Shown one piece after another: positions 501 to 31,341 of a stretch of 64,000 bases of DNA; the first letter of the stretch is position 1, and each line of letters begins with the position of its first letter. The position numbers were made by a program, and so were the translations under genes. The stretch is from assembly GCA_963666975.2 (NCBI GenBank), contig CAXVYR010000004.1, forward strand, positions 1 to 64,000, in the 5' to 3' direction. Under the pieces are notes generated by a model, which was given only the letters and a program-made list of their open reading frames with translations, was not told where the DNA came from and did not search any database. Origin of the DNA: Terriglobia bacterium (GTDB lineage Bacteria > Acidobacteriota > Terriglobia > 2-12-FULL-54-10).

Positions 501-513
501 CAGTGAGACCATC

Positions 514-2506: not shown

Positions 2507-3157
2507 TCACGCGACGCGTGGCTCGACCTCCTGTTCGATCTTGGCGCGCACGGTGCGTTCGGCGACGTCGAGATCATAACGGGTCTGGAGATTGATCCAG
2601 AATTCAGGCGTCGTCCCAAAATAGCGTCCCAGGCGCAGTGCAGTGTCGGTCGTGACACTGCGGCGTCCGAGCACGATATCGTTCAACCGTGGGCGAGAAA
2701 CCTTGATTACCTGGGCAAGCCGGTACACGCTGAGTTCCATTGGCGTTAGGAATTCATCGCGCAGTATCTCGCCTGGATGCACCAACGATAGCTGCCGCCC
2801 CGAAGCCACATCCGAGAAGTCAACCTCCCCCCGGTCCATATCCTCACGTTTGATGATCGTGTTCATTCCGCCTCCTGAATGGTAGTCGACGATCTCAACC
2901 TCCCATGCTTCGCCATCGCGCCAGACGAAACAGATACGCCATTGTTCGTTGACGCGAATGCTGTATTGCCCTCGGCGGTCGCCCCGCAACGCCTCAAGTC
3001 GGTTGCCGGGCGGCACTCGCAGATCGTCGAGTTGGCCTGCGGCCTCAATAGCCAGGAGTTTTGCTCTCGCCCGCTGCTGGAGCTGTATTGGCAGGCCGCG
3101 AACGGCATGGCCCGCAAAGATGGCCGCGCTACGCTTGTTGGCGAAACTCTTGATCAC
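2507..3157 (-). CDS. higBA: HigB toxin and HigA antitoxin read as a single fused ORF
   Basis: N-half MIKSF...PPGNRLEALRGDRRGQYSIRVNEQWRICF...EIVDYH is HigB. C-half HPGEILRDEFL...TALRLGRYFGTTPEFWINLQ is HigA. An internal ATG at 2866 has its own GGAGG. Confidence 0.9.
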   Translation of the reverse strand: MIKSFANKRSAAIFAGHAVRGLPIQLQQRARAKLLAIEAAGQLDDLRVPPGNRLEALRGDRRGQYSIRVNEQWRICFVWRDGEAWEVEIVDYHSGGGMNTIIKREDMDRGEVDFSDVASGRQLSLVHPGEILRDEFLTPMELSVYRLAQVIKVSRPRLNDIVLGRRSVTTDTALRLGRYFGTTPEFWINLQTRYDLDVAERTVRAKIEQEVEPRVA

Positions 3158-3907: not shown

Positions 3908-5408
3908 CAGCCCGTGGTGGAAGGGGCTTTTTTCAAGCCGCGTTTCGTTGATACCCCAGTGACGGTAGAACGGTCCATTGGACTGGGGAAAGTTCCTGGG
4001 GGTGGTGATGGGATTCCGAGCAGCTTTCCAGAACCATCCAGACGGCATAGAAACAGAAAAACAGGTGGTTCCGGAGGTCTTGCAGGCCGCGCGGCGTCCC
4101 CACTCCGATTTCCCGGCGCAGGATCAGGCTCAGGTTGAACGCCGCCACATGAATCAGCAGCCGCTTCAGGATGTTCCGATGCCCCCGCAGATGCGTCCTC
4201 CTCATTCCGCCCGTGTCGTAGACATGCGCAAACGTTCGTTCGAGGAACTCTCCCCGCCGGCGCAGGAGTTGTTTGCCCCGCTCGCCCCGGATGCGCCGCC
4301 GATTCCCATAGACCGCCGCCTGCTGGCCTCGCTTGCCGTTCCACTTCCGCCGCCCTCGCTGCGGCTCGGAAATGTAGGACCGTACCCCGATCTCCCCCCA
4401 ATCTTCCAGCAGCGCCCCGCTATGATAGCCCTTGTCCGTTACCACCTCTTCCAGTCCCCGCGCCTTCCTCTCTTCATCCGCCGTTGGTTCTTCCCCCGCC
4501 GCCTCCACCTGTTCGGCGGCCTCGATGAATGTTTCTTTGATCGTCGTCGTGTCGCCCGGGTCCGCCCCTTGCACCGTCACCGCCACTACCGCTCCCGTCT
4601 CCAGGTCTACGGCATGTTCCGCCTTGTGCGCCAGGTGCTTCCGCCCATCTTTCATCTTCGTGATGCGCGCCTCCGGATCGTGCGGGTTCACCCACTCCCG
4701 GTTCGATCCCTTCTGCTTCCGCTTCCGGTCCAGCCGCGCCAGCTCCTCCCGCGTCGGCGTCTCGATCCCCGATTCCTTCGCCAGCCGCGTCAGAAACTCC
4801 GCGTAGCTCTCCCCGCTCTCCCGCCGCACAATGCTACGCAGCGCCGCATTCGCTTCCAGCGTCGTCGCATCGATCCCCAGCGTCTTCCCCGCCAGCAGTC
4901 CCTTTCCCGCGATCATCCCCAGCACCCAGGTGAACACGTCCCGGTGTGTTTCCACGTCGATCAGCCGCCGCGTCCGCGAGATCGTCGAGTGATCCGGCGG
5001 CGCCTCCTCCAGTCCGATCCGCAGAAACCGCCGCAGCCCCAGCGAATCTGCCGCTCGCCAGGCGATCCCCCGCTCCGAGTCCAGCCCCTCGAAATACCCC
5101 ACCAGCAGCAGCCGGAAGTAGATCCCCGGAGCTAAGCTCGGCCGCCCCATCTTCGGAGCGTAGAACTTCCGGCACCGCTCCTCCACAAAGGTGTCATACC
5201 CGGCTTCCGCCAGCAGCTCATTTAACCGCTCATAGAATGGATGCCCCCCAGACCGCGGCAGATCGGCCGTCGCGATCCACAAACCTTCCTGTCGTTCCTG
5301 TTGTTTTCGTGTGCCCATCGCCATGCCGCCATTGTCGAACCTCTCCTTCTTCCTCGCAAGCCCATTCTTCCAAAATCTCGCCCTCCGACACACTTTCACC
5401 ACGGGCTC
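3908..5408 (-). mobile_element. IS1182/IS5-like insertion sequence, copy 1
   Basis: Terminal IRs CAGCCCGTGGTGGAAG and GAGCCCGTGGTGAAAG, with CTAG on both sides (3904-3907 and 5409-5412). A second copy is at 18571-20071. Confidence 0.92.
3933..5324 (-). CDS. DDE transposase (IS1182/IS5-like, DUF772-type N-terminus)
   Basis: Motifs GRPSLAP, PDHSTISRTR, IDATTLEANA, VTDKGY and ERTFAH. The likely start is MAMGTRK at 5324. Confidence 0.92.
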   Translation of the reverse strand: MAMGTRKQQERQEGLWIATADLPRSGGHPFYERLNELLAEAGYDTFVEERCRKFYAPKMGRPSLAPGIYFRLLLVGYFEGLDSERGIAWRAADSLGLRRFLRIGLEEAPPDHSTISRTRRLIDVETHRDVFTWVLGMIAGKGLLAGKTLGIDATTLEANAALRSIVRRESGESYAEFLTRLAKESGIETPTREELARLDRKRKQKGSNREWVNPHDPEARITKMKDGRKHLAHKAEHAVDLETGAVVAVTVQGADPGDTTTIKETFIEAAEQVEAAGEEPTADEERKARGLEEVVTDKGYHSGALLEDWGEIGVRSYISEPQRGRRKWNGKRGQQAAVYGNRRRIRGERGKQLLRRRGEFLERTFAHVYDTGGMRRTHLRGHRNILKRLLIHVAAFNLSLILRREIGVGTPRGLQDLRNHLFFCFYAVWMVLESCSESHHHPQELSPVQWTVLPSLGYQRNAA

Positions 5409-5412
5409 CTAG

Positions 5413-6200
5413 CGCTGACCGAAGGAGCCCGTAGGGCGACTGAGGTTAGCGCCGAATGGTGTTGTCGGGAAGCCACAGGGCTCCGCCACCGACCGCCGCA
5501 CCGGACCGCCACCCCCTCGGAGGAGTAGCGGCCCATAGCCAATGCTTAACGTCCCATCCAGGTGTTCATAGACGGTCACCCGGCAGCCCGCCAGAGTCCC
5601 GCGCCAAGGAGTTTTCTCGATCTGGAGGAGGCGGTTCTCCAGATTGACCGTATTGTCCCGATTCACTATCCGCTGGTGCTGGATCGAGAAGATTCGGTCT
5701 AACTCCCGCCTGGCTGACGGCAAAAAGGCGCTGCCTGGTTGGGTGGCCGGCACGGCAAAGCGCCGGTTGAACTCCCCGATATAGCCCTCCCGCAGGAACC
5801 GATTCGCTGCCTCTAGCGTGATGATTCCCCGCAGGCGCAGTTCCTGCGGCAGCCGCCCTTGCCAGGTCCCGAAGTTTCGCTCGCTCCGTCCCCGCGCCTG
5901 CGGCGAATAGGCCGGAATCATCTGAATGCCCAGCTCCCGCAGGGCGCGGCCCACCTGGGTCAGCCGTTGCCGATACACCGGCTCGCCCGCCTTCCGGGTC
6001 AGGAAGAAATGACTGGCCCGGTCGCTATAAAGGGCGCAAAAGATCCCCTGCTGCTCGACCACCTCCCGCAGGGCAACCAGCACCGTCCGCGTCGATTCCT
6101 GCTCTACCAGTTGCGCATAGTAAATCTCGCTGCTGGCATCATCCAGGACCACCAGCAGGTCATACCAGCGATCATCGACAAACCACCGATGCTGGCTCCC
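5413..6200 (-). pseudogene. internal fragment of a diverged IS1202-like transposase
   Basis: Homologous to 16800-17600 but with substitutions and a short frameshifting deletion near 5530. It is cut by the IS3 element at 6201 and the IS1182-like element at 5412. Confidence 0.88.
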
Positions 6201-6287
6201 TGTGCCCCGTCAGGGCTTGTTGGACAGGTAGAGGGTAATAGTTAAGGTGATGTTTTTGGCTCATCGTAGAGACTGAAAGGAACGAAG

Positions 6288-6659
6288 ATGAGACAAAAAC
6301 AAGACGACAGGGGGGCGGTCGAGAAGGCCGTCCGGGAGATCAAACGCAGGACGCGGCGCAGGTTCAGCCCGGAAGACAAAATCCGCATTGTATTGCAGGG
6401 ACTTCGCGGCGAGGACAGCATCGCGGAGCTGTGCCGCCGCGAGGGGCTGCACCAGAACCAGTATTACCGCTGGAGCAAGGAGTTTCTGGAGGCTGGCCGC
6501 AAGCGGCTGGCGGGCGACATAGACCGTGAGGCAACCAGTGGCGAAGTCAAGACTCTGCGGGAGCAGGCCGTACAGCTGAAAGAGGCCCTGGCCGAGGCTA
6601 TGCTGGAAAATCGCCTGCTAAAAAAAAGCGTGATCGGGGATGGGGAGGAACATACATGA
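6288..6659 (+). CDS. IS3 OrfA (HTH)
   Basis: RRFSPEDKIRIVLQGLRGEDSIAELCRREG and ENRLLKK before the frameshift window. Confidence 0.9.
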   Translation: MRQKQDDRGAVEKAVREIKRRTRRRFSPEDKIRIVLQGLRGEDSIAELCRREGLHQNQYYRWSKEFLEAGRKRLAGDIDREATSGEVKTLREQAVQLKEALAEAMLENRLLKKSVIGDGEEHT

Positions 6660-7639
6660 GATACCCTGCCTCGGAGAAGCTGGAGATCATCTGCACGGTG
6701 GAGCAATCTGCCCTGGGGGTGCGCCGGACGCTGCAGCAGGTTGGCATTCCCAGATCGACGTTTTACAACTGGTACGACCGCTATGTGTCGGAAGGCTTTG
6801 ATGGGCTGGAAGACAAAAAACCCGATCCTGGCCCTGTCTGGAACAAGGTGCCGGAGGAGATAACTCAGCAGTTGGTGACGTTAGCCCTGGCCGAGCCCGA
6901 TCTGTCGTCACGCGAGCTGGCGGTGCGTTTTACCGAGGAAAGGCGGTATTACCTTTCTGAATCGACGGTTTACCGCGTCCTGAAAAGCCATGACCTGATT
7001 ACCGCGCCAGCCTTTATTGTCCTGAAAGCGGCGGAACGGTTCGCCAACCCGACCACGGCGGTCAACCAGCTCTGGCAGACCGACTTCACCTACCTGAAAG
7101 TCATCGGTTGGGGCTGGTTCTACCTGTCCACGGTGCTGGACGACTTCTCGCGCTATATCATCGCCTGGCGGCTGTGCAAAACCATGAGCGCAAGTGACGT
7201 CTCGGCCACGTTGCGGGATGCTTTGCAAGCCACCGGCCTCGACCGCGTGGGCGCCCGGCACAGACCTCGCCTCCTGAGCGACAACGGGCCGTGCTACGTC
7301 TCTTCCGAACTGCAATCATGGCTGGCAGAAAACAGCGTGCCGCATACTCGCGGCAAGCCCTATCACCCCATGACGCAGGGCAAGATCGAACGCTGGCACC
7401 GAACTCTGAAAGACCGCATCCTGCTCAACAACTATTACCTGCCAGAAGAGCTGGAGCGGCAGATCGATGCCTTCGTCAACCACTACAACACCAACCGATA
7501 CCATGAAAGCCTGAACAACCTGACACCGTATGACGTTTTTACAGGCCAAGGCAGTGCCATCCTGCAAAAACGGGATCGCATCAAAGAGAAAACTATGATC
7601 TTAAGAAAACGGTTGCACTTCAAAAGAAGGGCAGCCTAA
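6656..7639 (+). CDS. IS3 OrfB (rve integrase core)
   Basis: DDE motifs WQTDFTY, LSDNGPCY and QGKIERWHRTLK. Confidence 0.92.
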   Translation: MRYPASEKLEIICTVEQSALGVRRTLQQVGIPRSTFYNWYDRYVSEGFDGLEDKKPDPGPVWNKVPEEITQQLVTLALAEPDLSSRELAVRFTEERRYYLSESTVYRVLKSHDLITAPAFIVLKAAERFANPTTAVNQLWQTDFTYLKVIGWGWFYLSTVLDDFSRYIIAWRLCKTMSASDVSATLRDALQATGLDRVGARHRPRLLSDNGPCYVSSELQSWLAENSVPHTRGKPYHPMTQGKIERWHRTLKDRILLNNYYLPEELERQIDAFVNHYNTNRYHESLNNLTPYDVFTGQGSAILQKRDRIKEKTMILRKRLHFKRRAA

Positions 7640-16259: not shown

Positions 16260-17678
16260 TGTCGTTAGCACATGATATGTCCGGTGGAAATAGCAAGTGA
16301 AGTGTCCGCTTGGAAGGCGGTCTGGGGTAAAAGCATCTATCCAGGAGGTGGAGATGGAGTCATACCCGAGGGCCGCGATGGAGCGGGCAATGAAGATACA
16401 AGAAGTAATCTTGCGAGCGATGGGGAAGCGGATCAACTGGTGGCAGGCAGCCGAGATCATCGGGATCAGCGACCGGCAGATGCGGCGGTGGCGCAGCCGG
16501 TACGAGCAGTACGGCTACGACGGGCTGTTTGACCGGCGGCGGGGAAAGCCGAGTCCGCGGCGGGTACCCCTGAGGACGGTGGAGAAGGTGCTGGGGCTGT
16601 ATCAGGAGAAGTACTTTGACTTCAACGTGCGGCACTTTCACGAGAAGCTGCGGGAGGAGCACGGCCTCCGGCTGAGCTATACGTGGGTAAAGCTGGCGTT
16701 GCAGGGGGCGGGGTTGGTAAACAAGAGGCGGAAGCGGGGCGTGCACCGCCAGCGGCGGCCCCGGCGGTCGTTGCCGGGGATGCTGCTGCATCTGGATGGG
16801 AGCCAACATCAGTGGTTTGTCGATGATCGCTGGTATGACCTGCTGGTGGTTCTGGATGATGCCAGCAGCGAGATTTACTATGCGCAACTGGTGGAGCAGG
16901 AATCGACGCGGACGGTGCTGGCTGCCCTGCGGGAGGTGGTCGAGCAACAGGGGGTCTTTTGCGCCCTTTATAGCGACCGGGCCAGTCATTTCTTCCTGAC
17001 CCGGAAGGCGGGCGAGCCGGTGGATCGGCAACGGCCGACCCAGGTGGGCCGTGCACTGCGGGATCTGGGCATTCAGATGATTCCGGCCTACTCGCCGCAG
17101 GCGCGAGGACGTGGCGAGCGGAATTTCGGGACCTGGCAAGGGCGGCTACCACAAGAGTTGCGCCTGCGGGAGATTACTACGGTCGAGGCAGCGAATGGGT
17201 TCCTGCGGGAGGGCTATATCGGGGAGTTCAATCGGCGCTTTGCCGTGCCGACCGCCCAACCGGGCAGCGCCTTTTTGCCGCCAGCCAGACGGGAGTTAGA
17301 CCGCATCTTCTCGATCCAGCACGAACGGGTAGTGAATCGGGACAATACGGTCAGTCTGGAGAACCGCCTCCTCCAGATCGAGAAAACTCCCTGGCGCGGG
17401 ACTCTGGCGGGCTGCCGTGTGACCGTCTATGAACACCTGGATAGGACGTTGAGCATTGGCTATGGACCGCACACAGTGGGTCGCTACTCCTCCGAGGGGG
17501 TGGCGATCCGGTGCGGTGGTCGGCGGCGGAGCCCCGTGGCTTCCCGACGACACCATTCGGCGCTCACCTCCGTCGCCCTACGGGCTCCTTCGGTCAGCGC
17601 CGAACCACTCTCGGTAGGATCATGAAACCGGACACTTCACTTGCTACAAATACCGGACATTTTAACTTGCTAACAACA
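16260..17678 (+). mobile_element. complete IS1202-like (ISNCY) insertion sequence
   Basis: About 50-bp imperfect IRs with internal repeats: TGTCGTTAGCA...TGTCCGG...TAGCAAGTGAAGTGTCCG versus revcomp TGTTGTTAGCA...TGTCCGG...TAGCAAGTGAAGTGTCCG. Confidence 0.88.
16354..17625 (+). CDS. ISNCY/IS1202-like DDE transposase
   Basis: AGGAGG then ATG at 16354. HTH AAEIIGISDRQMRR, LHLDGS.H.W, LYSDRAS and PQARGRGER.F.T.QGRL. Confidence 0.92.
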   Translation: MESYPRAAMERAMKIQEVILRAMGKRINWWQAAEIIGISDRQMRRWRSRYEQYGYDGLFDRRRGKPSPRRVPLRTVEKVLGLYQEKYFDFNVRHFHEKLREEHGLRLSYTWVKLALQGAGLVNKRRKRGVHRQRRPRRSLPGMLLHLDGSQHQWFVDDRWYDLLVVLDDASSEIYYAQLVEQESTRTVLAALREVVEQQGVFCALYSDRASHFFLTRKAGEPVDRQRPTQVGRALRDLGIQMIPAYSPQARGRGERNFGTWQGRLPQELRLREITTVEAANGFLREGYIGEFNRRFAVPTAQPGSAFLPPARRELDRIFSIQHERVVNRDNTVSLENRLLQIEKTPWRGTLAGCRVTVYEHLDRTLSIGYGPHTVGRYSSEGVAIRCGGRRRSPVASRRHHSALTSVALRAPSVSAEPLSVGS

Positions 17679-18570: not shown

Positions 18571-20071
18571 CAGCCCGTGGTGGAAGGGGCTTTTTTCAAG
18601 CCGCGTTTCGTTGATACCCCAGTGACGGTAGAACGGTCCATTGGACTAGGGAAAGTTCCTGGGGGTGGTGATGGGATTCCGAGCAGCTTTCCAGAACCAT
18701 CCAGACGGCATAGAAACAGAAAAACAGGTGGTTCCGGAGGTCTTGCAGGCCGCGCGGCGTCCCCACTCCGATTTCCCGGCGCAGGATCAGGCTCAGGTTG
18801 AACGCCGCCACATGAATCAGCAGCCGCTTCAGGATGTTCCGATGCCCCCGCAGATGCGTCCTCCTCATTCCGCCCGTGTCGTAGACATGCGCAAACGTTC
18901 GTTCGAGGAACTCTCCCCGCCGGCGCAGGAGTTGTTTGCCCCGCTCGCCCCGGATGCGCCGCCGATTCCCATAGACCGCCGCCTGCTGGCCTCGCTTGCC
19001 GTTCCACTTCCGCCGCCCTCGCTGCGGCTCGGAAATGTAGGACCGTACCCCGATCTCCCCCCAATCTTCCAGCAGCGCCCCGCTATGATAGCCCTTGTCC
19101 GTTACCACCTCTTCCAGTCCCCGCGCCTTCCTCTCTTCATCCGCCGTTGGTTCTTCCCCCGCCGCCTCCACCTGTTCGGCGGCCTCGATGAATGTTTCTT
19201 TGATCGTCGTCGTGTCGCCCGGGTCCGCCCCTTGCACCGTCACCGCCACTACCGCTCCCGTCTCCAGGTCTACGGCATGTTCCGCCTTGTGCGCCAGGTG
19301 CTTCCGCCCATCTTTCATCTTCGTGATGCGCGCCTCCGGATCGTGCGGGTTCACCCACTCCCGGTTCGATCCCTTCTGCTTCCGCTTCCGGTCCAGCCGC
19401 GCCAGCTCCTCCCGCGTCGGCGTCTCGATCCCCGATTCCTTCGCCAGCCGCGTCAGAAACTCCGCGTAGCTCTCCCCGCTCTCCCGCCGCACAATGCTAC
19501 GCAGCGCCGCATTCGCTTCCAGCGTCGTCGCATCGATCCCCAGCGTCTTCCCCGCCAGCAGTCCCTTTCCCGCGATCATCCCCAGCACCCAGGTGAACAC
19601 GTCCCGGTGTGTTTCCACGTCGATCAGCCGCCGCGTCCGCGAGATCGTCGAGTGATCCGGCGGCGCCTCCTCCAGTCCGATCCGCAGAAACCGCCGCAGC
19701 CCCAGCGAATCTGCCGCTCGCCAGGCGATCCCCCGCTCTGAATCCAGCCCCTCAAAATACCCGATCAGCAGCAGCCGGAAGTAGATCCCCGGAGCTAAGC
19801 TCGGCCGCCCCATCTTCGGAGCGTAGAACTTCCGGCACCGCTCCTCCACAAAGGTGTCATACCCGGCTTCCGCCAGCAGCTCATTTAACCGCTCATAGAA
19901 TGGATGCCCCCCAGACCGCGGCAGATCGGCCGTCGCGATCCACAAACCTTCCTGTCGTTCCTGTTGTTTTCGTGTGCCCATCGCCATGCCGCCATTGTCG
20001 AACCTCTCCCTCTTCCTCGCAAGCCCATTCTTCCAAAATCTCGCCCTCCGACACACTTTCACCACGGGCTC
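18571..20071 (-). mobile_element. IS1182/IS5-like insertion sequence, copy 2
   Basis: Same IRs and CTAG flanks (18567-18570 and 20072-20075), and only a few substitutions versus copy 1. Confidence 0.92.
18596..19987 (-). CDS. DDE transposase (IS1182/IS5-like), copy 2
   Basis: Nearly identical to 3933-5324. Confidence 0.92.
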   Translation of the reverse strand: MAMGTRKQQERQEGLWIATADLPRSGGHPFYERLNELLAEAGYDTFVEERCRKFYAPKMGRPSLAPGIYFRLLLIGYFEGLDSERGIAWRAADSLGLRRFLRIGLEEAPPDHSTISRTRRLIDVETHRDVFTWVLGMIAGKGLLAGKTLGIDATTLEANAALRSIVRRESGESYAEFLTRLAKESGIETPTREELARLDRKRKQKGSNREWVNPHDPEARITKMKDGRKHLAHKAEHAVDLETGAVVAVTVQGADPGDTTTIKETFIEAAEQVEAAGEEPTADEERKARGLEEVVTDKGYHSGALLEDWGEIGVRSYISEPQRGRRKWNGKRGQQAAVYGNRRRIRGERGKQLLRRRGEFLERTFAHVYDTGGMRRTHLRGHRNILKRLLIHVAAFNLSLILRREIGVGTPRGLQDLRNHLFFCFYAVWMVLESCSESHHHPQELSLVQWTVLPSLGYQRNAA

Positions 20072-21341
20072 CTAGATGCCCTTCCCGCTGGCTAGCTTCA
20101 GCCCATGCTTGTCGTGGGCGCACTGAATCTGTCGCCGTCCCTTGGGCCAAGTAGCGCGACCAGTCGTCCATCAGGATACGCCGACGCTCGAACAGGTCCG
20201 AGCGCGCGTAGGCCGCCTCGACCCTGTTCTGGACCACATGCGCCAAGGCCGCCTCGATCACCTCCCGGGGATGATCCGTCTCCTCGGCCGCCCAGTCCCG
20301 GAAGCTGGACCTGAAACCGTGCGGCACGGCCGCGATCTTTTGCTTCTGGAGCAGGCGGAGCAACTCCATAGCGATAAGCGGATTTCCGCGCCGTTTGGTG
20401 AACACGAGTGGACTGATTCCCTCCCCGAGCGTCCGAACCGCATCGAGAATCTCCATCGCGCGGTCACACAGCGGCACCCGGTGTTCGCGCTTCCCCTTCA
20501 TCCGCGTGGCGGGAATCGTCCACACACCCTCGTCCCGATCGATCTCGGTCCACTCGGCCCACCGTACCTCGCCCCACCTCGCCGCCGTCAGCACCAGGAA
20601 TTCGAACGCCAGCTTCACGACCGGCCTCGCATTCGACGCCCGGACCCTCTCGATGGCCGCCGGCACTTCCCGGTGGGGCAATGCCCGCCTGTGTTGAACG
20701 ACATCGTGTTGGGTGCCGAGCACCGGCACGACCCGGTCACACGGGTTGTCGATGCGAAACTCCATCGCCACCGCCCATTCCAACACCGCCCGGATGCGTT
20801 GGTGGACGTTCCGGGCTGTGACCGCCTTCACATACCAGATGGGCGTGAGGATCTCTAAAACATCGGCGCTGTTGACCTCTGAAACCGGCATCTTACCGAT
20901 GCGTAGGAAAGCGTACCGCCTCAGGCTCGAAATCCACTCAAGACAGTGAGCCGAACTTCGCCAGCCGGATTGCTTCTGTTTCAGCACGCGCTCGGCGGCT
21001 TCGGCAAAGCTGGGCACGCCCTCGGTGCGGCGCTTCTCCGCGAGCGGGTCCCCGCCTTCACGGGCCAACTTACGGTTGGCCAGCGCCTTCTTCCGGGCCT
21101 CGGCCAGCGAAACCAGGGCGACGCTGCCGAGGCCAAGCTCACGGCGGCGGCCGCGAACGAAGAGTCGCTGAATCCAGCTTCGGGTTCCGGTCGGCTGAAC
21201 CAACAGGTACAACCCGTTGCCGTCAGCGTGCCTTCCCACTCCGGCTGAGCGCACGAAGGTTGCCGACAGGGCCTTGTCGGGATGGCGGCCTTTGGGTTTG
21301 GTTGTTTGCGGAGCGGTAGCGTTATTCTTCACTGTAATCAT
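19893..21341 (-). CDS. P4-like tyrosine integrase with Arm DNA-binding domain; ORF runs on into the adjacent IS
   Basis: HADGNGLYL.V...LGLGS...VSLAEAR, LTAARWGE, MKGKREHRVPL, HGFRSSFRDW, LAH and AAYAR. The catalytic R-K-H-R-H-Y residues are present. Confidence 0.92.
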   Translation of the reverse strand: MITVKNNATAPQTTKPKGRHPDKALSATFVRSAGVGRHADGNGLYLLVQPTGTRSWIQRLFVRGRRRELGLGSVALVSLAEARKKALANRKLAREGGDPLAEKRRTEGVPSFAEAAERVLKQKQSGWRSSAHCLEWISSLRRYAFLRIGKMPVSEVNSADVLEILTPIWYVKAVTARNVHQRIRAVLEWAVAMEFRIDNPCDRVVPVLGTQHDVVQHRRALPHREVPAAIERVRASNARPVVKLAFEFLVLTAARWGEVRWAEWTEIDRDEGVWTIPATRMKGKREHRVPLCDRAMEILDAVRTLGEGISPLVFTKRRGNPLIAMELLRLLQKQKIAAVPHGFRSSFRDWAAEETDHPREVIEAALAHVVQNRVEAAYARSDLFERRRILMDDWSRYLAQGTATDSVRPRQAWAEASQREGHLGARGESVSEGEILEEWACEEEGEVRQWRHGDGHTKTTGTTGRFVDRDGRSAAVWGASIL

Positions 21342-21456
21342 CCCCACATTATATGAGGGGAATACTGTGGATGTCAAGAGACGTTGCGAGCAGGTCTAGT
21401 TGCTGCGGAACTCATGTAACTAAATGATTATATATCTAGTTATAGACTATCATGGA

Positions 21457-24856: not shown

Positions 24857-26047
24857 CTATACGATTCCTTCCCTCCGCAAGTTCTCAATCTCTTCCGGAG
24901 AACAGCCCCGGTAGGTTTGCAGAATCTCTTCCGTGTCCTGCCCCAGCGCGGGTGCTGGGCGATATTCGGGCGTGCTGCCGGAAATTTTGATAGGGCAGCC
25001 CACCTCGCGAATTTTCCCGAAGACGGGATGCTGCACTTCGGCGATCATGTCATTTGCCACGAGCTCCGGATCGTCCAGGGCCTCCGCCACGCTGCGGACC
25101 GGAGCGCAGGGCACCCTACTCGTCAGCACCGCCAGCCATTCGGCGGTTCCCTTCCCGGCAAAAAAATTCTCTAAAATCGGAATCAGCGTCTCGCGGTGCT
25201 TCTGCCGCTGGTCGAAACCATTAAAACGCGGATCGTTCAGAAGATCGTCTCTGCCGGCCGCCTTGCATAGCGCAACCCAGAATTTTTCCTTGGCGCAAAA
25301 GATCGCCAGGTGCCCGTCCCGCGTGCGAAACGTCTGTCCCGGAACCAGCACGGAGTGGGCCGAGGCGGAGTTCCTCACCGGCTCCAGACCCCGGTTCAGG
25401 TACCAGATGGCGAGGTAGTTCAGCATAGAGACGGAGGTGTCGGCGAGGCTGACGTCCACCTCGCACCCGGCGCCGGTCTTGCGGCTGGAAAAGATTCCGG
25501 CCATTAACCCGAAGGCGGCTGCGAATCCGCCCGCGAAGTCGACCACCGAGACGCCGCACTTGGCGGGAGGCCCGTCCGGATCACCGGTCAAGCTCATATA
25601 CCCGGCGCTGGCCTGCATCAGCGGATCGTAACCCGGCTCGGCTGCCCGCGGGCCGTGCCTCCCGAAGGCGCTCAGGGAACAGCAGACGATGGCCGGGTTG
25701 TGCTCGCGTAAGGCGTCATAAGTGAGCCCCAGGCGCGCCGGAACGTCGCCTCGCAGGTTGTTGAATACGGCGTCAGAAATTTTAACCAGACGGTGGAAGA
25801 CGGCCATCCCGCGCAGGTCGCCGAGGTTCAGCAGAAGACTGCGCTTGTTGCGGTTGAAACACTGGAAATAAAGGCTGTCGTCCTCCAGCCGGTAAGGCGG
25901 CACGCTGCGGGCGACGTCGCCGCGCGTGGAGGGGTCTTCAATCTTGATGACCTCCGCGCCCATGTCCGCCAGCATCAAGGTCCCGTAAGGGCCCGCGCCG
26001 AACTGCGAAACCGCCAAAATCCGTAACCCCTCGAGCGGCAAGCTCAT
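24857..26047 (-). CDS. CaiB/BaiF family III CoA-transferase
   Basis: PLEGLRIL...AGPY...LADMGAEVIKIE, NRNKRSL, GYDPLMQA and APALGQDT. Confidence 0.93.
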   Translation of the reverse strand: MSLPLEGLRILAVSQFGAGPYGTLMLADMGAEVIKIEDPSTRGDVARSVPPYRLEDDSLYFQCFNRNKRSLLLNLGDLRGMAVFHRLVKISDAVFNNLRGDVPARLGLTYDALREHNPAIVCCSLSAFGRHGPRAAEPGYDPLMQASAGYMSLTGDPDGPPAKCGVSVVDFAGGFAAAFGLMAGIFSSRKTGAGCEVDVSLADTSVSMLNYLAIWYLNRGLEPVRNSASAHSVLVPGQTFRTRDGHLAIFCAKEKFWVALCKAAGRDDLLNDPRFNGFDQRQKHRETLIPILENFFAGKGTAEWLAVLTSRVPCAPVRSVAEALDDPELVANDMIAEVQHPVFGKIREVGCPIKISGSTPEYRPAPALGQDTEEILQTYRGCSPEEIENLRREGIV

Positions 26048-26259
26048 GGACTGATCCTTTCTTCATTTCTTCCTTGGGCAAATCGGTAGCGGCGCTCCAC
26101 GCTCCGCGAGGGGATATGATACACCGGCGCGGCTGGCCGGCGGATGGATTGCCCGGATGAATTGGCTGGTAGCTTTGCTGGATGAGTTACCCGGCGGAAG
26201 GGCTTTTCTGCCGGAGATCAAAGGCAGACGGTTGCCGGCGTGAGGGTCGGTAAAGTGGT

Positions 26260-26769
26260 TTATGAAGTTGTCGAAGAGGTGGGTTCCGATCTTCGCACCG
26301 GCAGGTAAAACCCGTTGCCGTTCCCACCGAGCGGGCATGAGAGCGCTTCTACAATGGAGGCCTCCGTCACCAGGATGGCGCAACCCCGCCCGCCCGGCTG
26401 CCATCCCCACAGACGCCCGCTGCGCAGCCAGAGACGAACCGCGTCCTCGCTCTTCCTCAGCCGGTAGGCCGCTTCCTTTACCGTGACCGTTTTCTCCTTG
26501 TTCAGGTCCAATACCTGTAGCGCGACCCGAACCGGCTCGGGAGTTTGAGCGGGCGCAGCTTTTACAACAGGCACGGCGGCGGGGCCAACATCTGCCGGAA
26601 CGCGTTTGGGGAGACGAGGGGGCCGTTTCAATTTCATTACGGGACCTGCTACCAGAAGCTTCCCATTAGGCCTCTTCACCCTCTGACCTGCCGACTTCTT
26701 CCCTGTTTTTTGGCGGGCCGGTCGCTGACTGGCCGTTTGCCGCTCCGCTGCGAGGGTTCTGGCGCGCAC
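26260..26769 (-). CDS. excisionase-like (HTH_17) DNA-binding protein with basic N-terminal tail
   Basis: TVTVKEAAYRLRKSEDAVRLWLRSGRL, placed 2 nt after the gemA-like stop. Confidence 0.75.
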   Translation of the reverse strand: MRARTLAAERQTASQRPARQKTGKKSAGQRVKRPNGKLLVAGPVMKLKRPPRLPKRVPADVGPAAVPVVKAAPAQTPEPVRVALQVLDLNKEKTVTVKEAAYRLRKSEDAVRLWLRSGRLWGWQPGGRGCAILVTEASIVEALSCPLGGNGNGFYLPVRRSEPTSSTTS

Positions 26770-26771
26770 GA

Positions 26772-27446
26772 TTACTCCGCCCTCCCCCCGTGAAGCTCCC
26801 TGTTAAACTTCTGGTCAAGTTCCCGCTTGATGGCCGACACTTCCCGGATCAGTTCTTCCTCTCTGACTGAATGGTCTTTCCCTTTGCGTTTCTGGATGCG
26901 CTGGCGAGCCCCCACGGCACATAAGGCCTCAATGACGCGCCCAGCCTGGTCATGCGCCAACTGCTCGGGCCGGTCTACATGGAACTTGGCCTGCAAAAAA
27001 CCGGCGAGCCTTTTCGCCGTCCCGCCTGGACGGGACCATCCCAGAAACTGCTCAATCTGCCGAATCTTCCAGAGCTGCGCGTCGCTCGGGCGGTCCAGAG
27101 GAGCGATAACGGAAGGTGTATCACTGATAGCAGTGGCGATAGCAGCGGCAGCGCCCTCGCCAGGAGGGTCCGCATCGACTCCAGCCGAAAGAGGTTTCTT
27201 GGGTCCTAATTCTTCGAGCAACCGGTGGATGACCTGGTTCGCTTCCTGCCAGTTCAATGCCTTGCAGGTCTCCACCTCATGACCTACGATCTCTGATATC
27301 TGCCGGAGTTGCGCTGCCCGGGAAATCCCCAGGCGTAGCCGCTTCCCCGCGTGCCGCAGTTTGGCGCTCCACAACGTCTGGAGAATTTGAATCTGTCGCA
27401 GGCTGATCCGCTGGCTCCGGAATCGCCCGATGGCTGCTTGGCTCAT
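26772..27446 (-). CDS. Mu GemA/gp16-like (DUF1018) protein
   Basis: TCKALNWQEANQVIHRL and PSDAQLWKIRQI...LGWS...LAGFL..KF.VDRPEQL...QA.RVIEAL, with AGGAGAAG upstream. Confidence 0.75.
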   Translation of the reverse strand: MSQAAIGRFRSQRISLRQIQILQTLWSAKLRHAGKRLRLGISRAAQLRQISEIVGHEVETCKALNWQEANQVIHRLLEELGPKKPLSAGVDADPPGEGAAAAIATAISDTPSVIAPLDRPSDAQLWKIRQIEQFLGWSRPGGTAKRLAGFLQAKFHVDRPEQLAHDQAGRVIEALCAVGARQRIQKRKGKDHSVREEELIREVSAIKRELDQKFNRELHGGRAE

Positions 27447-27512
27447 AAACCCTTCTTCTCCTCCTCCGTTCCCCGGTTAGGATCGCCGGCGAGCGGCGGA
27501 CAACGCTTCTAC

Positions 27513-28127
27513 TCACTTCGATGCATCTGCTCTTCTACTGCCAGTTGATGCCAGGGCAGCCCTGGCGGCTGGGTCCACCTCGTACCAGAACTCCTCGTTT
27601 TCCCGCAGCACAATGGAAGGACAGCGGAGCAACTCCGCCGACTCGCCGCCGGAACCGTTCCGGGCGAGCAGGACGGAGCGAATCGCCTCGCGGTCGATCT
27701 CCGTGCGCGTGCGCAGATAGCGGTGAAAGCCGCCGCTGAGGAGCCACTCCAGGACCGACGCCGCGTCCTCCACCACCACGCTGCGGGAACGCCGCGCGCC
27801 GAGGCGGCCGAAAGGCAGCTCCACCGACTTGCGCCCTTCGGCCAACACTTCCTTCCGGTGCGCCCAATAAAACCGCTCGATCTGGTGCCGCAGGCTCTCC
27901 TGCTCGCGTTCCATGTCCTTGCCGGCATCGAGCGTACGTTGTTTCAACTCCGCCACCCTGCGGTTCATCCGCACCGTGAGCGCTTCCATTTGTCGTTCAA
28001 TCTCCCCCAGCCGCGCCAGGCGCAGGTTCACGTCGTCCCAGCAGCGGGGACCCGCTGCACACTGCTTCCCTTGTTGCGCTTTTGCTTGTTTCAGCCTCTT
28101 GCTCTCTGTTTTCAGTCTCTTTTTCAT
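27513..28127 (-). CDS. gam: Mu Gam-like host-nuclease inhibitor / DNA end-binding protein
   Basis: WDDVN..L..LGEI coiled coil, then FY.AHR.E....RKSVELPFGRLG.R, YLRT..EIDREAI and EEFWYE. Confidence 0.85.
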   Translation of the reverse strand: MKKRLKTESKRLKQAKAQQGKQCAAGPRCWDDVNLRLARLGEIERQMEALTVRMNRRVAELKQRTLDAGKDMEREQESLRHQIERFYWAHRKEVLAEGRKSVELPFGRLGARRSRSVVVEDAASVLEWLLSGGFHRYLRTRTEIDREAIRSVLLARNGSGGESAELLRCPSIVLRENEEFWYEVDPAARAALASTGSRRADASK

Positions 28128-28128
28128 G

Positions 28129-28167
28129 GTTCGACCTCAAAGTTCAACCTCAAAGTTCAACCTCAAA
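28129..28167 (-). repeat. 3 x 13-bp tandem repeat containing the gam ribosome-binding site
   Basis: GTTC(G/A)ACCTCAAA x3. The minus-strand unit TTTGAGGTTGAAC carries GAGGT. Confidence 0.85.
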
Positions 28168-28592
28168 GAAGGGTGGGTAGCGATGCGGGACGAGGGGTCC
28201 TGAACCGGTTAAAGCGGAAATGGATGACCTAAGTACAAATCCTGGAAGATTTAGGATCAACTGAGGAAGGTTTAGAGAAGAACGGAATGGCACCCCCATA
28301 GGAGCCCGCCTTGTATTGCCAGCGGCTCCTGCCCGTACCATCCCGTTCTCTGCTAACTTATCGAGACACATATACGGTTTCGATAGCAGATAATTTCGCT
28401 TTTCTTTTAAGGACAGCCAGATCGTAAGCTGCCAACCGTACCAGGTCAGTCTCTGGCAATCTGTGGTTTTGAGCTTGCTTTTTGTGGCTTCTGTGCTAAC
28501 CATAAGCTGTATTACACAAAACCGAAAAGTAAGCAGCGATGACCCCTTCCGGCTGTCTGTGGAGGTACAGGGACGGGGGAAGCTGCAAACAA

Positions 28593-28611
28593 TACTTGTA
28601 TTATACAAGTA
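28593..28611. promoter_or_regulatory. palindromic operator overlapping a leftward -10 box
   Basis: Perfect TACTTGTAT-T-ATACAAGTA with minus-strand TATAAT in its centre. A degenerate copy CTGTATTACACAA is at 28507-28519. Confidence 0.7.
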
Positions 28612-28634
28612 GTCCACAAGTCAAGTAAAATTTT

Positions 28635-29423
28635 ATGAATGTTTCCGAGCGGCTGAAAAATTTCCGTAAGCGCTTAAATATCAATCAATCTGAGTTAGCG
28701 GACCGGACCGGATACTCCGCGTCATCTATCAGCCACTACGAACTCGGCAGAAGAAAACCCAGCCACCGCTTCCTGGAAAAGCTGGACGAGGTGGAAGCTG
28801 CAGCGACAAAGCCCGGCGGCAAAGCCGTTGATGCGAAGCGGACCGATCTGCAAACCCTCGGGGGGCAGATTGAATCCTTGAAAAAAGAGATCGAACATCT
28901 GACGGCACGGCTCAATCCAACCGGGGCTCAGGCGGAAAAGCCGGGATTCAACCCGCCGGAGATTCGCATCTACACTAAGGAGGAATGGAAGCAGGGCACC
29001 CAGGACCGGCTGCGCTTCCAGATTCAGATTCCTGTCCTAAGGGACGAAGCGGCGGCGGGCTCTCCGCGCGAAATCGACGGGCGGGACATTGACAGCTTCA
29101 TCGCCGTGCCGTCCAAGTTCGTGCCCCGGGGGCCGACGGCTTATACGGGCATATACATCCAGGGAGACTCGATGGAGCCGGTTCTGGGCAACCGCTTCAT
29201 AGTGGTGGTTGATCACACGCACCGCGATCCGGTCCGACTGCGGGGCCGGATGGTGGCGGCGCTGGTGCAGGACGGCGTGGTGGTCAAGTGGCTGGCGCGC
29301 GAGACACGGCGCGACCGCATCGTGTTGCGCTCTCAAAACCCGGACTATGAAGACATTGTATTGGAGTCGCCGGAGACCGATCCCATCATCGGCGACGTGG
29401 TGTTCTGGTGGGGCGTGCAGTAG
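28635..29423 (+). CDS. XRE-HTH plus S24 peptidase repressor (CI/LexA-like)
   Basis: HTH LNINQSELADRTGYSASSISHYELG, Ala-Gly cleavage site AAAG, catalytic Ser in GDSMEP and catalytic Lys in VVKWL. Confidence 0.92.
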   Translation: MNVSERLKNFRKRLNINQSELADRTGYSASSISHYELGRRKPSHRFLEKLDEVEAAATKPGGKAVDAKRTDLQTLGGQIESLKKEIEHLTARLNPTGAQAEKPGFNPPEIRIYTKEEWKQGTQDRLRFQIQIPVLRDEAAAGSPREIDGRDIDSFIAVPSKFVPRGPTAYTGIYIQGDSMEPVLGNRFIVVVDHTHRDPVRLRGRMVAALVQDGVVVKWLARETRRDRIVLRSQNPDYEDIVLESPETDPIIGDVVFWWGVQ

Positions 29424-29524
29424 GAGAGCAAGCCGACCGCGCGGTAAGACGGTTCCCGGTCGCGCCTGCCATGACTCAGTGCTGGACGGAACCGGATGCT
29501 TCTGCCTTCTGCCGGGGAACTTCC

Positions 29525-30349
29525 CTAACAGCCCTTCCGCAAAAACAACAGCCGCGCGACCGCCATCAGCACCAGCACACCCCCGAAGGTGCAGACCATT
29601 GTGGCGCCGGTCGGCAGATCCAGTCTTAAGGAAAGATAGACGCCGAGAGCGGAAACCAGCGTCCCCATGCCCCAGCCAACCGCCAGCCGCCGCCCGGTGG
29701 TTTCCGCAAAGAGGATGCCTCCCACCGACGGCACAATCAGATAACAGAAAACCAGCAGAACTCCGGCAATCGCTACAGCCGAGGTCACCACGACCCCGAA
29801 GGAGGCGTAGAAGAGGAAATCCCACCAGCGGAGCGACAAGCCTTGGGCTTCGGCTTCTTCCGGGTTGGCCGAAATCAACAGGAACTTCCGGCGAAAGAGA
29901 TAATGAAATGCTCCCACGGCGGCACACAGGATGGCGGTGGTGCCCACCTCGCGCCATGAGACCACCAGGATGTTGCCGACCAGCATGTCCTTCAAGTGCT
30001 CCGTTTCCCCAACGGCCTTGCTCATGGCCAGGATGGCGGCGGCGGAGGCCACGGCGTAGGTGATCCCGATGATGGCTTCCTGGGGGATGCGGCTGTCCCG
30101 GCTTCGAACCAGGGAAAAGAAAGCGGCTCCCAGGAGAGTGAAGACCAGGCTGATCCAGTATGCCTCTGCCCCATGCAGATCCACCCCGAGCAGCACGGCC
30201 ATGCTGGCCCCCAGAGCGGCGATCTGGGCCAAAGCCAGGTCCACAAAAATTACTCCCCGCTCCACCACATGAAGTCCCAGGTATGTATGAATTCCTACCA
30301 GGATGAGGCTGGCTACCAGCGGCGGCGCCAGAAAAATGAGTACGTCCAT
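29525..30349 (-). CDS. Zn/Mn-type metal ABC transporter permease (ZnuB/ABC-3-like)
   Basis: Multiple TM helices, GLHVVERGVIFVDLALAQ, EAIIGI.Y, GVLLVFCYLIVP and DLPTGA. Confidence 0.88.
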   Translation of the reverse strand: MDVLIFLAPPLVASLILVGIHTYLGLHVVERGVIFVDLALAQIAALGASMAVLLGVDLHGAEAYWISLVFTLLGAAFFSLVRSRDSRIPQEAIIGITYAVASAAAILAMSKAVGETEHLKDMLVGNILVVSWREVGTTAILCAAVGAFHYLFRRKFLLISANPEEAEAQGLSLRWWDFLFYASFGVVVTSAVAIAGVLLVFCYLIVPSVGGILFAETTGRRLAVGWGMGTLVSALGVYLSLRLDLPTGATMVCTFGGVLVLMAVARLLFLRKGC

Positions 30350-30399
30350 AATTCACTCCTGCTTCGATTCGCTCCCGGCTTCAAATCGTTCCTGCTTCC

Positions 30400-31341
30400 C
30401 TACTGCTGCCGGGCTAATGACTCCGTCAGAAGCCGAATGTTGTAGTCAAACAGTTGAAAGTAATTCGTCACTTCCGGTACGCCGCCCACCGAGGGCAGCA
30501 ACACCAAAACCTCGGCTCCCGTTTGGCGTGCAATGGCCTGCGGAGTTTTCAAGTCAAAATAAGGCTCCACGATGACCGCCTTGATGCCGTCCTGCCGCAT
30601 CTGGCGGATCAGCTCCAAAATGTGCCCTGGACTGGGCGGAATCCCCGGCTTGGGCTCGACATACCCGGCGACATGCAAGCCAAAGCGCTGCATAAAACTG
30701 GGCCAGGAGTTATGGTAGGTGACGACCTCGGTTCCCTGGAGCACAGCCATCTGCTGCTCCCATCTTTTTTCGGCCTCCTCCAACCTGCGGTCAAAATCCT
30801 CGTAGCGTTGTTGGAAATAAGCCGCGTCCTCCCGTTGCAGTTCCGTGAGCCTTTCCTGAACGGCCTTCGCGATCAGGCGTCCGTTCCGGGGATCCAGCCA
30901 ATAGTGAGGGTTGCCCAGCGGGTGAACATCCCCCATAGCGCGGGTTACCGGGCCGCTTAGCTTTTGCAAGATCACGGCCGATCGGGAAACATCCAGGTAG
31001 CCGGGAGCGCCCACTTGAATGCGGCGATTGCGGCTCCGAGTAATCAAGGGAGGCAGCCAGCCAATCTCCAATTGCAACCCCACCAGGACCAGCAAATCGG
31101 CGCGGTTCAGCTTCAGCAGGAAACTGGGCTTGGCCTCGACGAAGTGCGGGTCCTGGTAGCCGCGAGCCATGGCCTCTACCTTCACGCGGTCGCCCCCCAC
31201 TTCACGGACCAGGGCGCTCAGGTCCTGGGTGGTGGTCATGACGTTCAGGGTTTGGGCCTTGGACGGAACGGGAGCGGTCACCAGCAGCAATAGAAGAATT
31301 GTCACTCCTGCCGGCGCCCAACGCGGCGATTTTTTTACCAT
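30400..31341 (-). CDS. Zn/Mn-type ABC substrate-binding protein (ZnuA/TroA-like)
   Basis: GGAGGA then ATG at 31341. Signal peptide, DPHF, GDVHPLGNPHYWLDP, VTYH and EPKPGIPPSP.H. Confidence 0.92.
   Translation of the reverse strand: MVKKSPRWAPAGVTILLLLLVTAPVPSKAQTLNVMTTTQDLSALVREVGGDRVKVEAMARGYQDPHFVEAKPSFLLKLNRADLLVLVGLQLEIGWLPPLITRSRNRRIQVGAPGYLDVSRSAVILQKLSGPVTRAMGDVHPLGNPHYWLDPRNGRLIAKAVQERLTELQREDAAYFQQRYEDFDRRLEEAEKRWEQQMAVLQGTEVVTYHNSWPSFMQRFGLHVAGYVEPKPGIPPSPGHILELIRQMRQDGIKAVIVEPYFDLKTPQAIARQTGAEVLVLLPSVGGVPEVTNYFQLFDYNIRLLTESLARQQ

Follow-up and report, generated by a model that had tools for sequence, protein, structure and literature searches.

A Stand-Alone Module of a Mu-like Repressor, gam and gemA at a Shared Chromosomal Site in a Family of Terriglobia

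Introduction

Transposable phages of the Mu type, among them D3112 and JBD30, have an early region in which a repressor gene is divergent from an operon that holds gam, gemA and, at its end, a small regulator. The Gam protein of Mu is held to be a homologue of Ku that binds double-strand DNA ends. In this paper, we describe a locus with the same order of genes in a Terriglobia bacterium (GenBank assembly GCA_963666975.2; 4.23 Mb in 4 contigs, 98.9% complete). It lies at positions 26260-29423 of the first 64 kb of contig 4 (CAXVYR010000004.1), the stretch of DNA that is called the window below. There, a forward-strand gene for a repressor with an XRE-type helix-turn-helix (HTH) and an S24 peptidase domain is divergent from three reverse-strand genes, namely gam, gemA and one for a small HTH protein. 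We refer to these four genes and the control region between them as the module. An earlier sequence-only reading of this DNA had placed four open reading frames (ORFs) here among host genes and proposed that the host had co-opted them as a damage-inducible switch with DNA-acting genes, for end protection or repair or for interference with phages; the position and the setting are borne out by the ORF list and by the Pfam matches of the flanking genes.

In D3112, the counterparts of the four genes are cI, orf13 (gam), orf18 (GemA) and orf19 (late activator). The same order is found in a Mu-like prophage of another genome of the class (G249, described below). The repressor and gam of D3112 are approximately 6.7 kb apart and gam and gemA only 1.4 kb, so that the several kilobases said by the earlier reading to separate these genes in Mu apply, in this phage, to the first pair and not to the second. 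The module differs from the Mu-like phages in that ner, transposase A/B, kil, lysis and structural genes are missing from it, in that the HTH protein encoded at its end has no relation to D3112 orf19, and in that it occupies a fixed chromosomal site across genera. Its Gam is 28% identical to the nearest relative from a cultured phage, which is D3112-like.

In the available part of a recent preprint (10.1101/2025.08.30.673261), Gam of the Mu-like phage JBD30 is described as a Ku homologue that binds DNA ends and stops RecBCD from loading. The same part reports that JBD30 Gam and JBD30 GemA, independently of each other, license Gabija restriction, ties this effect to antagonism of RecBCD at DNA ends, and calls GemA molecularly uncharacterised (10.1101/2025.08.30.673261). 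The joint retention of Gam and GemA in the module fits these statements, since they link the two proteins functionally.

Several other described systems invite comparison. Bacterial Ku, which acts with LigD in end joining, resembles the module insofar as Mu Gam is regarded as its homologue, and differs from it in that the Gam of the module matches PF07352 and not PF02735. LexA and the λ CI repressor share with the S24 protein an HTH joined to an S24 domain with Ala-Gly and Ser/Lys, as well as palindromic candidate operators overlapping a promoter. The S24 protein is, in contrast, not the LexA of the cell, as a canonical LexA with a LexA_DNA_bind domain is encoded elsewhere in the genome (C4:1966211-1966810), and it controls, as far as can be seen, one adjacent operon. 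Among domesticated or cryptic-prophage parts, E. coli cryptic prophages, tailocins and gene transfer agents are known. Like those, the module has been kept without a functional phage, under purifying selection and at a stable site; what sets it apart is that a regulatory switch is kept together with early genes predicted to act on DNA ends, at the depth of a family. A full-text literature search found no description of a stand-alone S24/gam/gemA module.

The Module across the Family

The reading that we favor, and hold to be rather probable, is that the module descends from a Mu-like phage, as a remnant of its immunity and early region that was fixed before the genera of the family diverged and has since been selected as a module of the host. 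The gene content and arrangement, the orthologous position, the catalytic motifs, the geometry of promoters and operators and the purifying selection on the genes can be read directly from the DNA. A fixed and selected remnant, rather than random decay, is argued for by the comparisons of synteny, of substitution rates and of gene trees given below.

The order contains one family of 14 genomes, namely the source genome (G000) and 13 others (G001-G013; codes beginning with L denote loci or contigs, and g1 is the genus of the window). The state of the locus in each was established by tblastn in fetched loci and by Pfam scans of the neighboring genes; GemA was sought in the relatives by tblastn and profile search inside the fetched loci, not genome-wide. 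The module, whole or reduced, was found in the same neighborhood in 12 of the 13 other genomes. The S24 repressor (E <=1e-20) is present in nine of them, the HTH domain in ten (11/14 with G000) and Gam in five.

All four genes occur in G002 and G005, and no pseudogenization was seen in these two genomes or in G000. GemA is trimmed to 148 aa in G003 and absent from G008; in G004, where the contig ends, GemA is intact and an IS1595 transposase lies between S24 and a fragmented Gam. Reduced forms comprise S24 with the HTH gene only (G007), a 110-aa XRE-only protein with the HTH gene (G006), and the HTH gene alone adjoining ZnuB (G012 and G013). G009 has an S24-like protein without the Ala-Gly, Ser and Lys residues, and its HTH frame contains an in-frame stop. 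Two further genomes show S24 at a contig end (G010) and HTH on a 3-kb contig (G011). No Gam was found genome-wide in G006, G007, G009, G012 and G013, and neither Gam nor GemA in their fetched loci. The gam-gemA pair is thus accessory and has been lost repeatedly, and the S24 gene with the HTH gene is the durable core.

The closest relative, G001, belongs to the same genus and has S24 alone (89% identity); where the operon would be expected, there are genes for an IS3-type transposase, for a protein with a Fic domain and for a DEAD/Helicase_C protein of 1747 aa that also has the MrfA zinc-binding domain (L027, G001:C4, 1089-9004). This island could be a defense island.

The neighborhood is made up of host genes in every genus. 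ZnuB, ZnuA and a porin adjoin the module in G000, G002, G005 and G007 and flank the HTH gene in G012 (with a partial ZnuB in G013), and ZnuB lies on the S24 side in G010. A TonB-dependent receptor adjoins the module in G003, G004 and G009. These genes, either ZnuB with ZnuA and the porin or the receptor, recur between genera on the S24 side, and an AcsA-like gene is found further out on that side in G001 and, past the receptor, in G003 and G004, as in the window. On the HTH side, the flanks across genera are DivIC, EPSP synthase, MFS or DAO genes, DivIC being found there in G003, in G005 (next to PGM) and in the metagenome locus L103.

A scan of metagenome contigs by profile searches gave 16 further loci, all with the same layout of S24 (-) facing Gam (+). 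These loci are partly dependent, given that L096 is probably the same record as G005 and two pairs share identical Gam DNA. S24 is present in 13 of the 16, and the contigs of the remaining three start at or just ahead of Gam; the HTH gene is present in eight, and the other eight contigs stop before it. GemA matches the whole profile in L096 and, as two pieces, in L095, is represented by its N-terminal part only in L102, L103 and L104, and is absent from L093, L101 and L105. In L094, L099 and L100 the contig stops within it, and the contigs of L097, L098, L106, L107 and L108 end at or shortly after Gam, which places them outside this count. The 34 flanking metagenome ORFs belong to host families only (TonB receptor, ABC-3, MFS, DAO, PGM-DivIC-FTCD-AcrB, HicB and others). 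No transposase A/B, portal, terminase or integrase adjoins the module in the 13 genome loci or in these 16. The module is therefore found in related Acidobacteriota in stand-alone form, the occurrence that the earlier reading had proposed to look for, and most relatives have neither a full prophage at this place nor an empty site.

Across the class, the Gam profile matched in 5/13 other genomes of the family, compared with 3/287 genomes of other families. Two of these other-family genomes are instructive. G249 carries a seemingly complete Mu-like prophage (L092, G249:C43, 3327-18740), which includes an XRE repressor, a transposase with rve and Mu-transpos_C domains, Gam, a glucosaminidase and a terminase. 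In G027 (L091, G027:C28, 8737-10432), a stand-alone S24 (34% identity) faces Gam (31%), with a weak HTH-domain match next to it, host peptidase flanks and the same promoter/operator design. This could mean that the module predates the family or, alternatively, that it was transferred between families on one occasion.

Table 1. Predicted genes and candidate regulatory sites of the module (positions in the window)
Feature	Position	Strand	Details
S24 repressor	28635-29423	+	262 aa; HTH_3 E 1.7e-10, Peptidase_S24 E 6.2e-16
Gam	27513-28127	-	204 aa; Phage_Mu_Gam (PF07352) E 4.7e-24
GemA	26772-27446	-	224 aa; GemA (PF06252) E 1.2e-8
Small HTH gene	26260-26769	-	169 aa; sub-threshold HTH_17 only, E 0.002
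Divergent control region	28128-28634		507 bp; GC ~0.51
Perfect palindrome, candidate main operator	28594-28610		17 bp: 8-bp arms, 1-bp center; 24 bp upstream of S24 start
Candidate auxiliary operator	28508-28519		11/12 identical to palindrome core; direct-repeat family
Candidate gam-operon promoter	28600-28629	-	sigma-70-like: TTTACT, 18 nt, TATAAT; 10/12 matches
Three tandem 13-bp units	28124-28168		hold Shine-Dalgarno-like GAGG before gam start; two units in G002

Selection and Descent

Ratios of nonsynonymous to synonymous substitution rates (dN/dS) were calculated by the Nei-Gojobori method for G000 against G002. The ratio was 0.14 for S24 (p 1.6e-16, dS 0.40), 0.37 for Gam (p 5e-4, dS 0.20), 0.42 for GemA (p 6e-4, dS 0.22) and 0.375 for the HTH gene (p 4e-4, dS 0.29), all well below 1. 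Five flanking genes gave 0.18-0.24 (p <=2.3e-7) at dS 0.18-0.35, and this agreement in dS between the module and its flanks is as co-inheritance predicts. Other pairs gave similar values for Gam: 0.28 for L094/L095, 0.25 for L097/L098, 0.17 for L102/L103 and 0.15 for L102/L104, with dS of 0.25-0.42 and p <=1.6e-5. Between genera, dS is near or above 1 and the ORFs are still open. The genes of the operon are thus under somewhat weaker constraint than their housekeeping neighbors, yet they do not evolve neutrally.

A RecA tree (13 genomes, DNA) and a tree of the S24 C-terminal domain (10 genomes) agree in showing a g1 clade, G003 with G010 near G005, and G008 beside g1; the branch of G009 is very long. 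Nothing in this one-marker comparison contradicts vertical descent. Both comparisons had been suggested by the sequence-only reading, and each came out in the direction it expected. Its wider claim that the locus does not reflect random decay is supported by synteny, dN/dS and tree, and is qualified by the partial dispensability of gam-gemA and by G001, where only the repressor is left.

The Repressor and the Control Region

The HTH_3 (residues 7-52) and Peptidase_S24 (residues 133-256) domains of the repressor both score above the Pfam cut-off, the latter with 58.6 bits against 23.3, and the protein matches the transcriptional repressors of phrog_4 (E 4e-27). Ala141-Gly142, Ser179 (in GDSMEP) and Lys218, which we take, from LexA and CI, to be the cleavage site and the catalytic dyad, are present as claimed from the sequence alone; they are conserved in nine of the ten aligned S24 orthologues and lost in G009. 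By these features, the protein is predicted to be a repressor of the CI/LexA type with an N-terminal XRE HTH and a C-terminal autopeptidase domain.

The two halves of this protein have had different histories. The N-terminal 100 residues of the g1 repressors are strongly unlike those of other genera, whereas from residue 104 onward the proteins are 73-82% identical, and the S24 domain is ~80% identical between genera that differ in the HTH domain. The stretch of residues ~104-135 just ahead of the Ala-Gly (EIRIYT..WK.GT.DRLRFQ.Q.P) is near-invariant across genera, a constancy not usual in the linkers of CI-type repressors.

The control region measures 507 bp in g1, compared with 150-200 bp in other genera, and is 88% identical to that of G002, which has a 53-bp insertion there. 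Candidate sites are listed in Table 1. The 17-bp palindrome has the same sequence in G002, and the -10 of the leftward promoter falls in its center; altogether, three promoter-like sites were found in the region, compared with 0.9 expected. A 155-aa ORF at 28150-28617 was considered as a gene and rejected, as it has no Pfam match and as its frame would be broken by the 53-bp insertion that G002 has inside this stretch. No conserved ORF was found in the control region, and a search of Rfam gave no match across 25500-30500.

The layout recurs elsewhere with other sequences. In G005, G003, G008 and G010, a different 16-bp palindrome lies in the spacer between TTGACA and a -10-like hexamer aimed at gam, with a second copy lying across a promoter-like pair that points rightward. 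In G009 and G027, the same place is occupied by still other palindromes, that of G027 being 21 bp long and lying between TTGACA and a -10-like hexamer. A palindrome within the gam-directed -35/-10 pair is thus found in every genus and in G027, and there are at least four operator types among the genera. As the operator sequence varies with the HTH domain while the S24 domain and the promoter layout stay constant, the binding domain and the candidate operators appear to have changed in concert, through compensated drift or through replacement of a cassette.

Gam and GemA

Gam scores 85.5 bits against PF07352 (cut-off 28.3), covering positions 1-149 of the 149-position profile, and matches phrog_491, "Mu Gam-like end protection", with E 2.3e-24. 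On this basis, it is predicted to be a DNA-end-binding protein of the Mu Gam (Ku-like) type. PHROGs assigned the other genes in line with Pfam: GemA to a family of unknown function, the S24 protein to transcriptional repressors, and the HTH protein, weakly, to excisionases. In a word-seeded search, the Gam of the module formed a discrete clade of 56 clusters at >=45% identity, with nothing between E 7e-38 and the limit of 1e-10. A pattern scan of the genome collection returned solely four family members. Alignment searches of viral contigs with Gam and S24 gave no relative of Gam and, for S24, just short matches at the level of the HTH. A prediction of a complex of two Gam chains with GemA scored 0.01 (mark 0.32), which is evidence neither for nor against an interaction.

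GemA scores 36.3 bits against PF06252 (cut-off 27) over profile positions 15-114 of 119, and its hhalign match to D3112 GemA is weak and confined to a conserved C-terminal motif. A search with the protein gave 27 matches, of which 24 are full-length at >=52% identity. The structural model (mean predicted local distance difference test, pLDDT, 70) has two helical domains around a disordered linker at residues 83-116, and in several lineages the protein is trimmed to the N-terminal domain alone. The C-terminal domain of Red-beta binds λ exonuclease and the tail of SSB. The N-terminal domain of the GemA model (residues 10-85) aligns with that domain at Z 8.3 and a root-mean-square deviation (rmsd) of 1.6 A over 61 of 63 residues, and with the C-terminal part of the Sak annealase of 80-alpha at Z 6.5 (next rows 6.1 and 4.9), values that can arise by chance among helical bundles. 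We regard the modeled likeness to Red-beta as a lead only.

The Small HTH Protein

The last gene of the operon encodes a protein that, in its structural model, has a disordered, basic and proline-rich N-terminal half (~90 residues) followed by a winged-helix domain at residues 94-144 (pLDDT ~90). Its sequence matches HTH_17 with 18.7 bits (cut-off 27), a value of 29.4 bits being reached by the orthologue of G012 and 26.8 by that of G006, and TIGR01764 with 20 bits (cut-off 28.8). The best Foldseek match is BldC (6ama; template modeling score 0.80, rmsd 1.4 A over 53 columns), followed by matches to Xis and to the N-domains of MerR. We therefore describe it, from its modeled fold, as a predicted winged-helix DNA binder of the Xis/MerR/BldC type. 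The C-terminal domain superposes on these proteins; the differences from BldC and Xis are the disordered basic half, the lack of a conserved integrase partner and the sub-cut-off sequence match.

The protein has the highest dN of the module between genera, and only a domain of ~60 residues is conserved. The family numbers 71 representative clusters at E <=1e-10. A search of the PDB with an alignment of the family returned nothing meaningful. Regarding the Mor family, no Pfam match was obtained at E <=0.01, and hhalign gave a probability of 0.15% with the late activator orf19 of D3112; the gene resembles a Mor/C-type activator by its position in the operon only.

In G008, the gene with the HTH domain has two extra copies away from the module, at L065, 10134-10688, and at L066, ~5046-5216. 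One of the two has G6PD and a KaiC/RadA-like ATPase in its vicinity, and the other has sulfite reductase and an IS200-like gene. This protein family has spread within host genomes.

Surroundings of the Module in the Window

Within the operon, gam and gemA are separated by 66 nt, and the HTH gene starts 2 nt past the gemA stop. The flanks hold a CoA-transferase III, an HbpS-like gene and a GAF-HD protein on one side (Pfam), and ZnuB, ZnuA, a porin and an AMP-binding enzyme, named via its orthologues, on the other. The host-like composition ascribed to the module holds for its coding parts, the guanine-cytosine (GC) content of which is 0.60-0.64 as in the flanks, and fails for the control region and the 5' end of the S24 gene, where it is lower (0.51-0.52).

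The whole source genome contains one Gam and one GemA. There is no complete Mu-like prophage in the window, the ORFs of which include no transposase A/B, Mu-type portal or structural genes. Searches of the genome for Mu-transpos_C (PF09299), DDE_2 (PF02914) and Portal_Mu (PF06074) also gave no match, a weak negative given that the named control genomes were silent too, although Mu-transpos_C did match the G249 prophage.

The 41 further ORFs of the window that were scanned include a cell-wall synthesis cluster on the right; on the left, there are insertion sequence (IS) elements, a HigB-like toxin gene (2507-3157), TPR proteins and, at the right edge of this region, a tyrosine integrase (19893-21377, -; Arm-DNA-bind_3, Phage_int_M, Phage_integrase; phrog_1). 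The statement that the locus has no MuA/MuB, ner, integrase or structural gene is hence correct for the module itself and needs a qualification for its vicinity, as this integrase lies 4.9 kb away. Together with the IS copies, it raised the question of a mobile island or satellite, which we rejected: four host-type genes intervene, three of which are also found on the same side of the module in G002 (the contig of which begins within the third), no integrase is found beside the module in any relative, and there is no tRNA gene in the 64-kb window. The integrase may mark an unrelated genomic island ending near 21.4 kb.

A 442-aa transposase (16297-17625, +) was likewise considered as a remnant of MuA and dismissed, as its pairwise E values against D3112 A and the G249 transposase are just 0.002-0.008 and it belongs to a multi-copy IS. 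This IS has five near-full-length copies in the genome, at 88-100% identity, and many fragments, several of them with in-frame stops. Other pieces of the gene lie at 5409-6152 (-) and 1-501 (+), the contig beginning within one copy, and IS copies also span 3933-7639.

What the Module May Do

If the module works as its parts suggest, the S24 repressor would bind the palindromes over the leftward -10 and keep gam, gemA and the HTH gene off, probably regulating itself as well. A signal would then remove the repressor; most likely, this would be RecA filaments formed after DNA damage, which would stimulate self-cleavage at Ala-Gly. Once the operon is on, Gam would bind double-strand ends as a Ku-like dimer and shield them from a helicase-nuclease of the AddAB type, GemA would act in the same context of ends and recombination, and the product of the HTH gene would serve as a DNA binder similar to Xis and BldC, either as a regulator or as an architectural factor.

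The host offers a setting for such events. RecA is encoded in 14/14 genomes of the family. No match to Ku, RecC or an ATP-dependent ligase was found in the G000 genome, in which two adjacent large ORFs have PDDEXK_1 nuclease domains and may form an AddAB-like pair. A possible, tentative account is that a family without Ku/LigD fixed phage Gam and GemA under an SOS-style repressor as its own damage-inducible module for the protection or repair of ends; in this account, the N-terminal domain of GemA would couple to SSB or a nuclease, and the BldC-like protein would be a second-tier regulator that has spread to other loci.

Several observations weigh against a selected host module of phage descent or narrow what can be claimed for it. 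We infer what induces the operon, what each protein does biochemically and how the host benefits. Gam is not required to compensate for a missing Ku, because Ku is absent from 13/14 genomes with or without Gam; the one genome that has it, G008, also has Gam, so that there is no anti-correlation. The gam-gemA pair is missing or broken in G001, G004, G006, G007, G009, G012 and G013, the first of which, the closest relative, keeps the repressor only; GemA is absent from G008, G027 and three metagenome loci and reduced to its N-terminal domain in G003 and three metagenome loci. In the pair of G000 and G002, the dN/dS of Gam, GemA and the HTH gene is approximately twice that of the flanks. A phage origin is no more than putative for the HTH gene, which falls below the Pfam cut-off in this genome and to which no match was found in cultured phages. 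The relatives are all metagenome-assembled genomes, several of them incomplete, and the deeper branches of both trees are poorly supported. Expression of the repressor is weakly hinted at by a contig of 247 nt from an RNA library (one metatranscriptome run), identical to 28679-28925 within the repressor gene (0 differences), although such contigs show neither strand nor level and may stem from DNA carry-over; that no RNA contig covers gam, gemA or the HTH gene does not indicate that these genes are silent.

Other explanations have to be weighed against the same data. The module could serve in phage defense, its repressor silencing the early promoter of incoming relatives, or its derepressed operon interfering with phage DNA or sensitizing it to host nucleases. 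The diversification of HTH domains and operators between genera beneath an S24 domain that hardly changes is a pattern typical of phage immunity regions, and in g1 the HTH domain and the long control region resemble a cassette that has been exchanged. The class includes a real Mu-like prophage (G249), the island with Fic and an MrfA-type helicase stands in place of the operon in G001, and, in the part of the preprint cited above, JBD30 Gam and GemA each license Gabija restriction. However, PADLOC-DB 2.0 matched no known defense system, giving only generic HTH matches and scores of 19-22 bits (mad1, Cas6), and neither viral contigs nor cultured phages yielded a near relative of Gam or S24, the D3112-like Gam being the best match from a cultured phage. 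Immunity alone would, moreover, explain neither why Gam, GemA and the HTH gene are under purifying selection nor how the HTH gene has survived without a repressor in G012 and G013. We consider defense unlikely as the main benefit of the module, without dismissing it.

A role in two-tier regulation, in which S24 controls the HTH protein, the latter regulates or structures host DNA, and Gam and GemA are optional passengers in the course of being lost, has a small probability in our view. It would account for the HTH gene being the most widely kept part and for its persistence with S24 alone, with an XRE-only repressor, or by itself next to ZnuB; the three copies in host contexts in G008, the many clusters of the family, the position of a middle or late activator of Mu-like phages and the fold shared with Xis and with the developmental regulator BldC are in line with it. 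What speaks against it is that the HTH protein changes fastest between genera outside its short conserved domain and that Gam, with dN/dS of 0.15-0.37 in separate pairs and intact ORFs at saturated dS, is not a neutral passenger where it is present. A neutral, slowly decaying prophage scar, kept by chance or by hitch-hiking with its neighbors, is disfavored and appears very improbable, even though independent losses and truncations are many, an IS has inserted in G004 and the copy in G009 is degenerate. All four genes, and several independent pairs, have dN/dS significantly below 1, the ORFs stay open across genera at dS >1 with intact copies in G000, G002 and G005, the promoter/operator geometry is conserved, and the HTH domain and operator change in compensation. 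The remnant of a Mu-like early region, fixed early in the family and since selected, is accordingly the reading that we retain.

Significance of the Module

Tails, capsids and a few genes of cryptic prophages are phage parts for which domestication is known. As far as the literature search goes, a piece of a transposable phage's early region that is conserved and gated by a repressor appears not to have been described. The locus provides a clean natural series for the co-evolution of the DNA-binding domain of a repressor with its operators under a fixed sensor domain. It would also be a tractable setting for the study of GemA, which is full-length, reduced to its N-terminal domain or absent in otherwise identical contexts. 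If the function proposed above is true, this family would present a natural case in which a host uses a phage homologue of Ku as an inducible factor for the protection of DNA ends.

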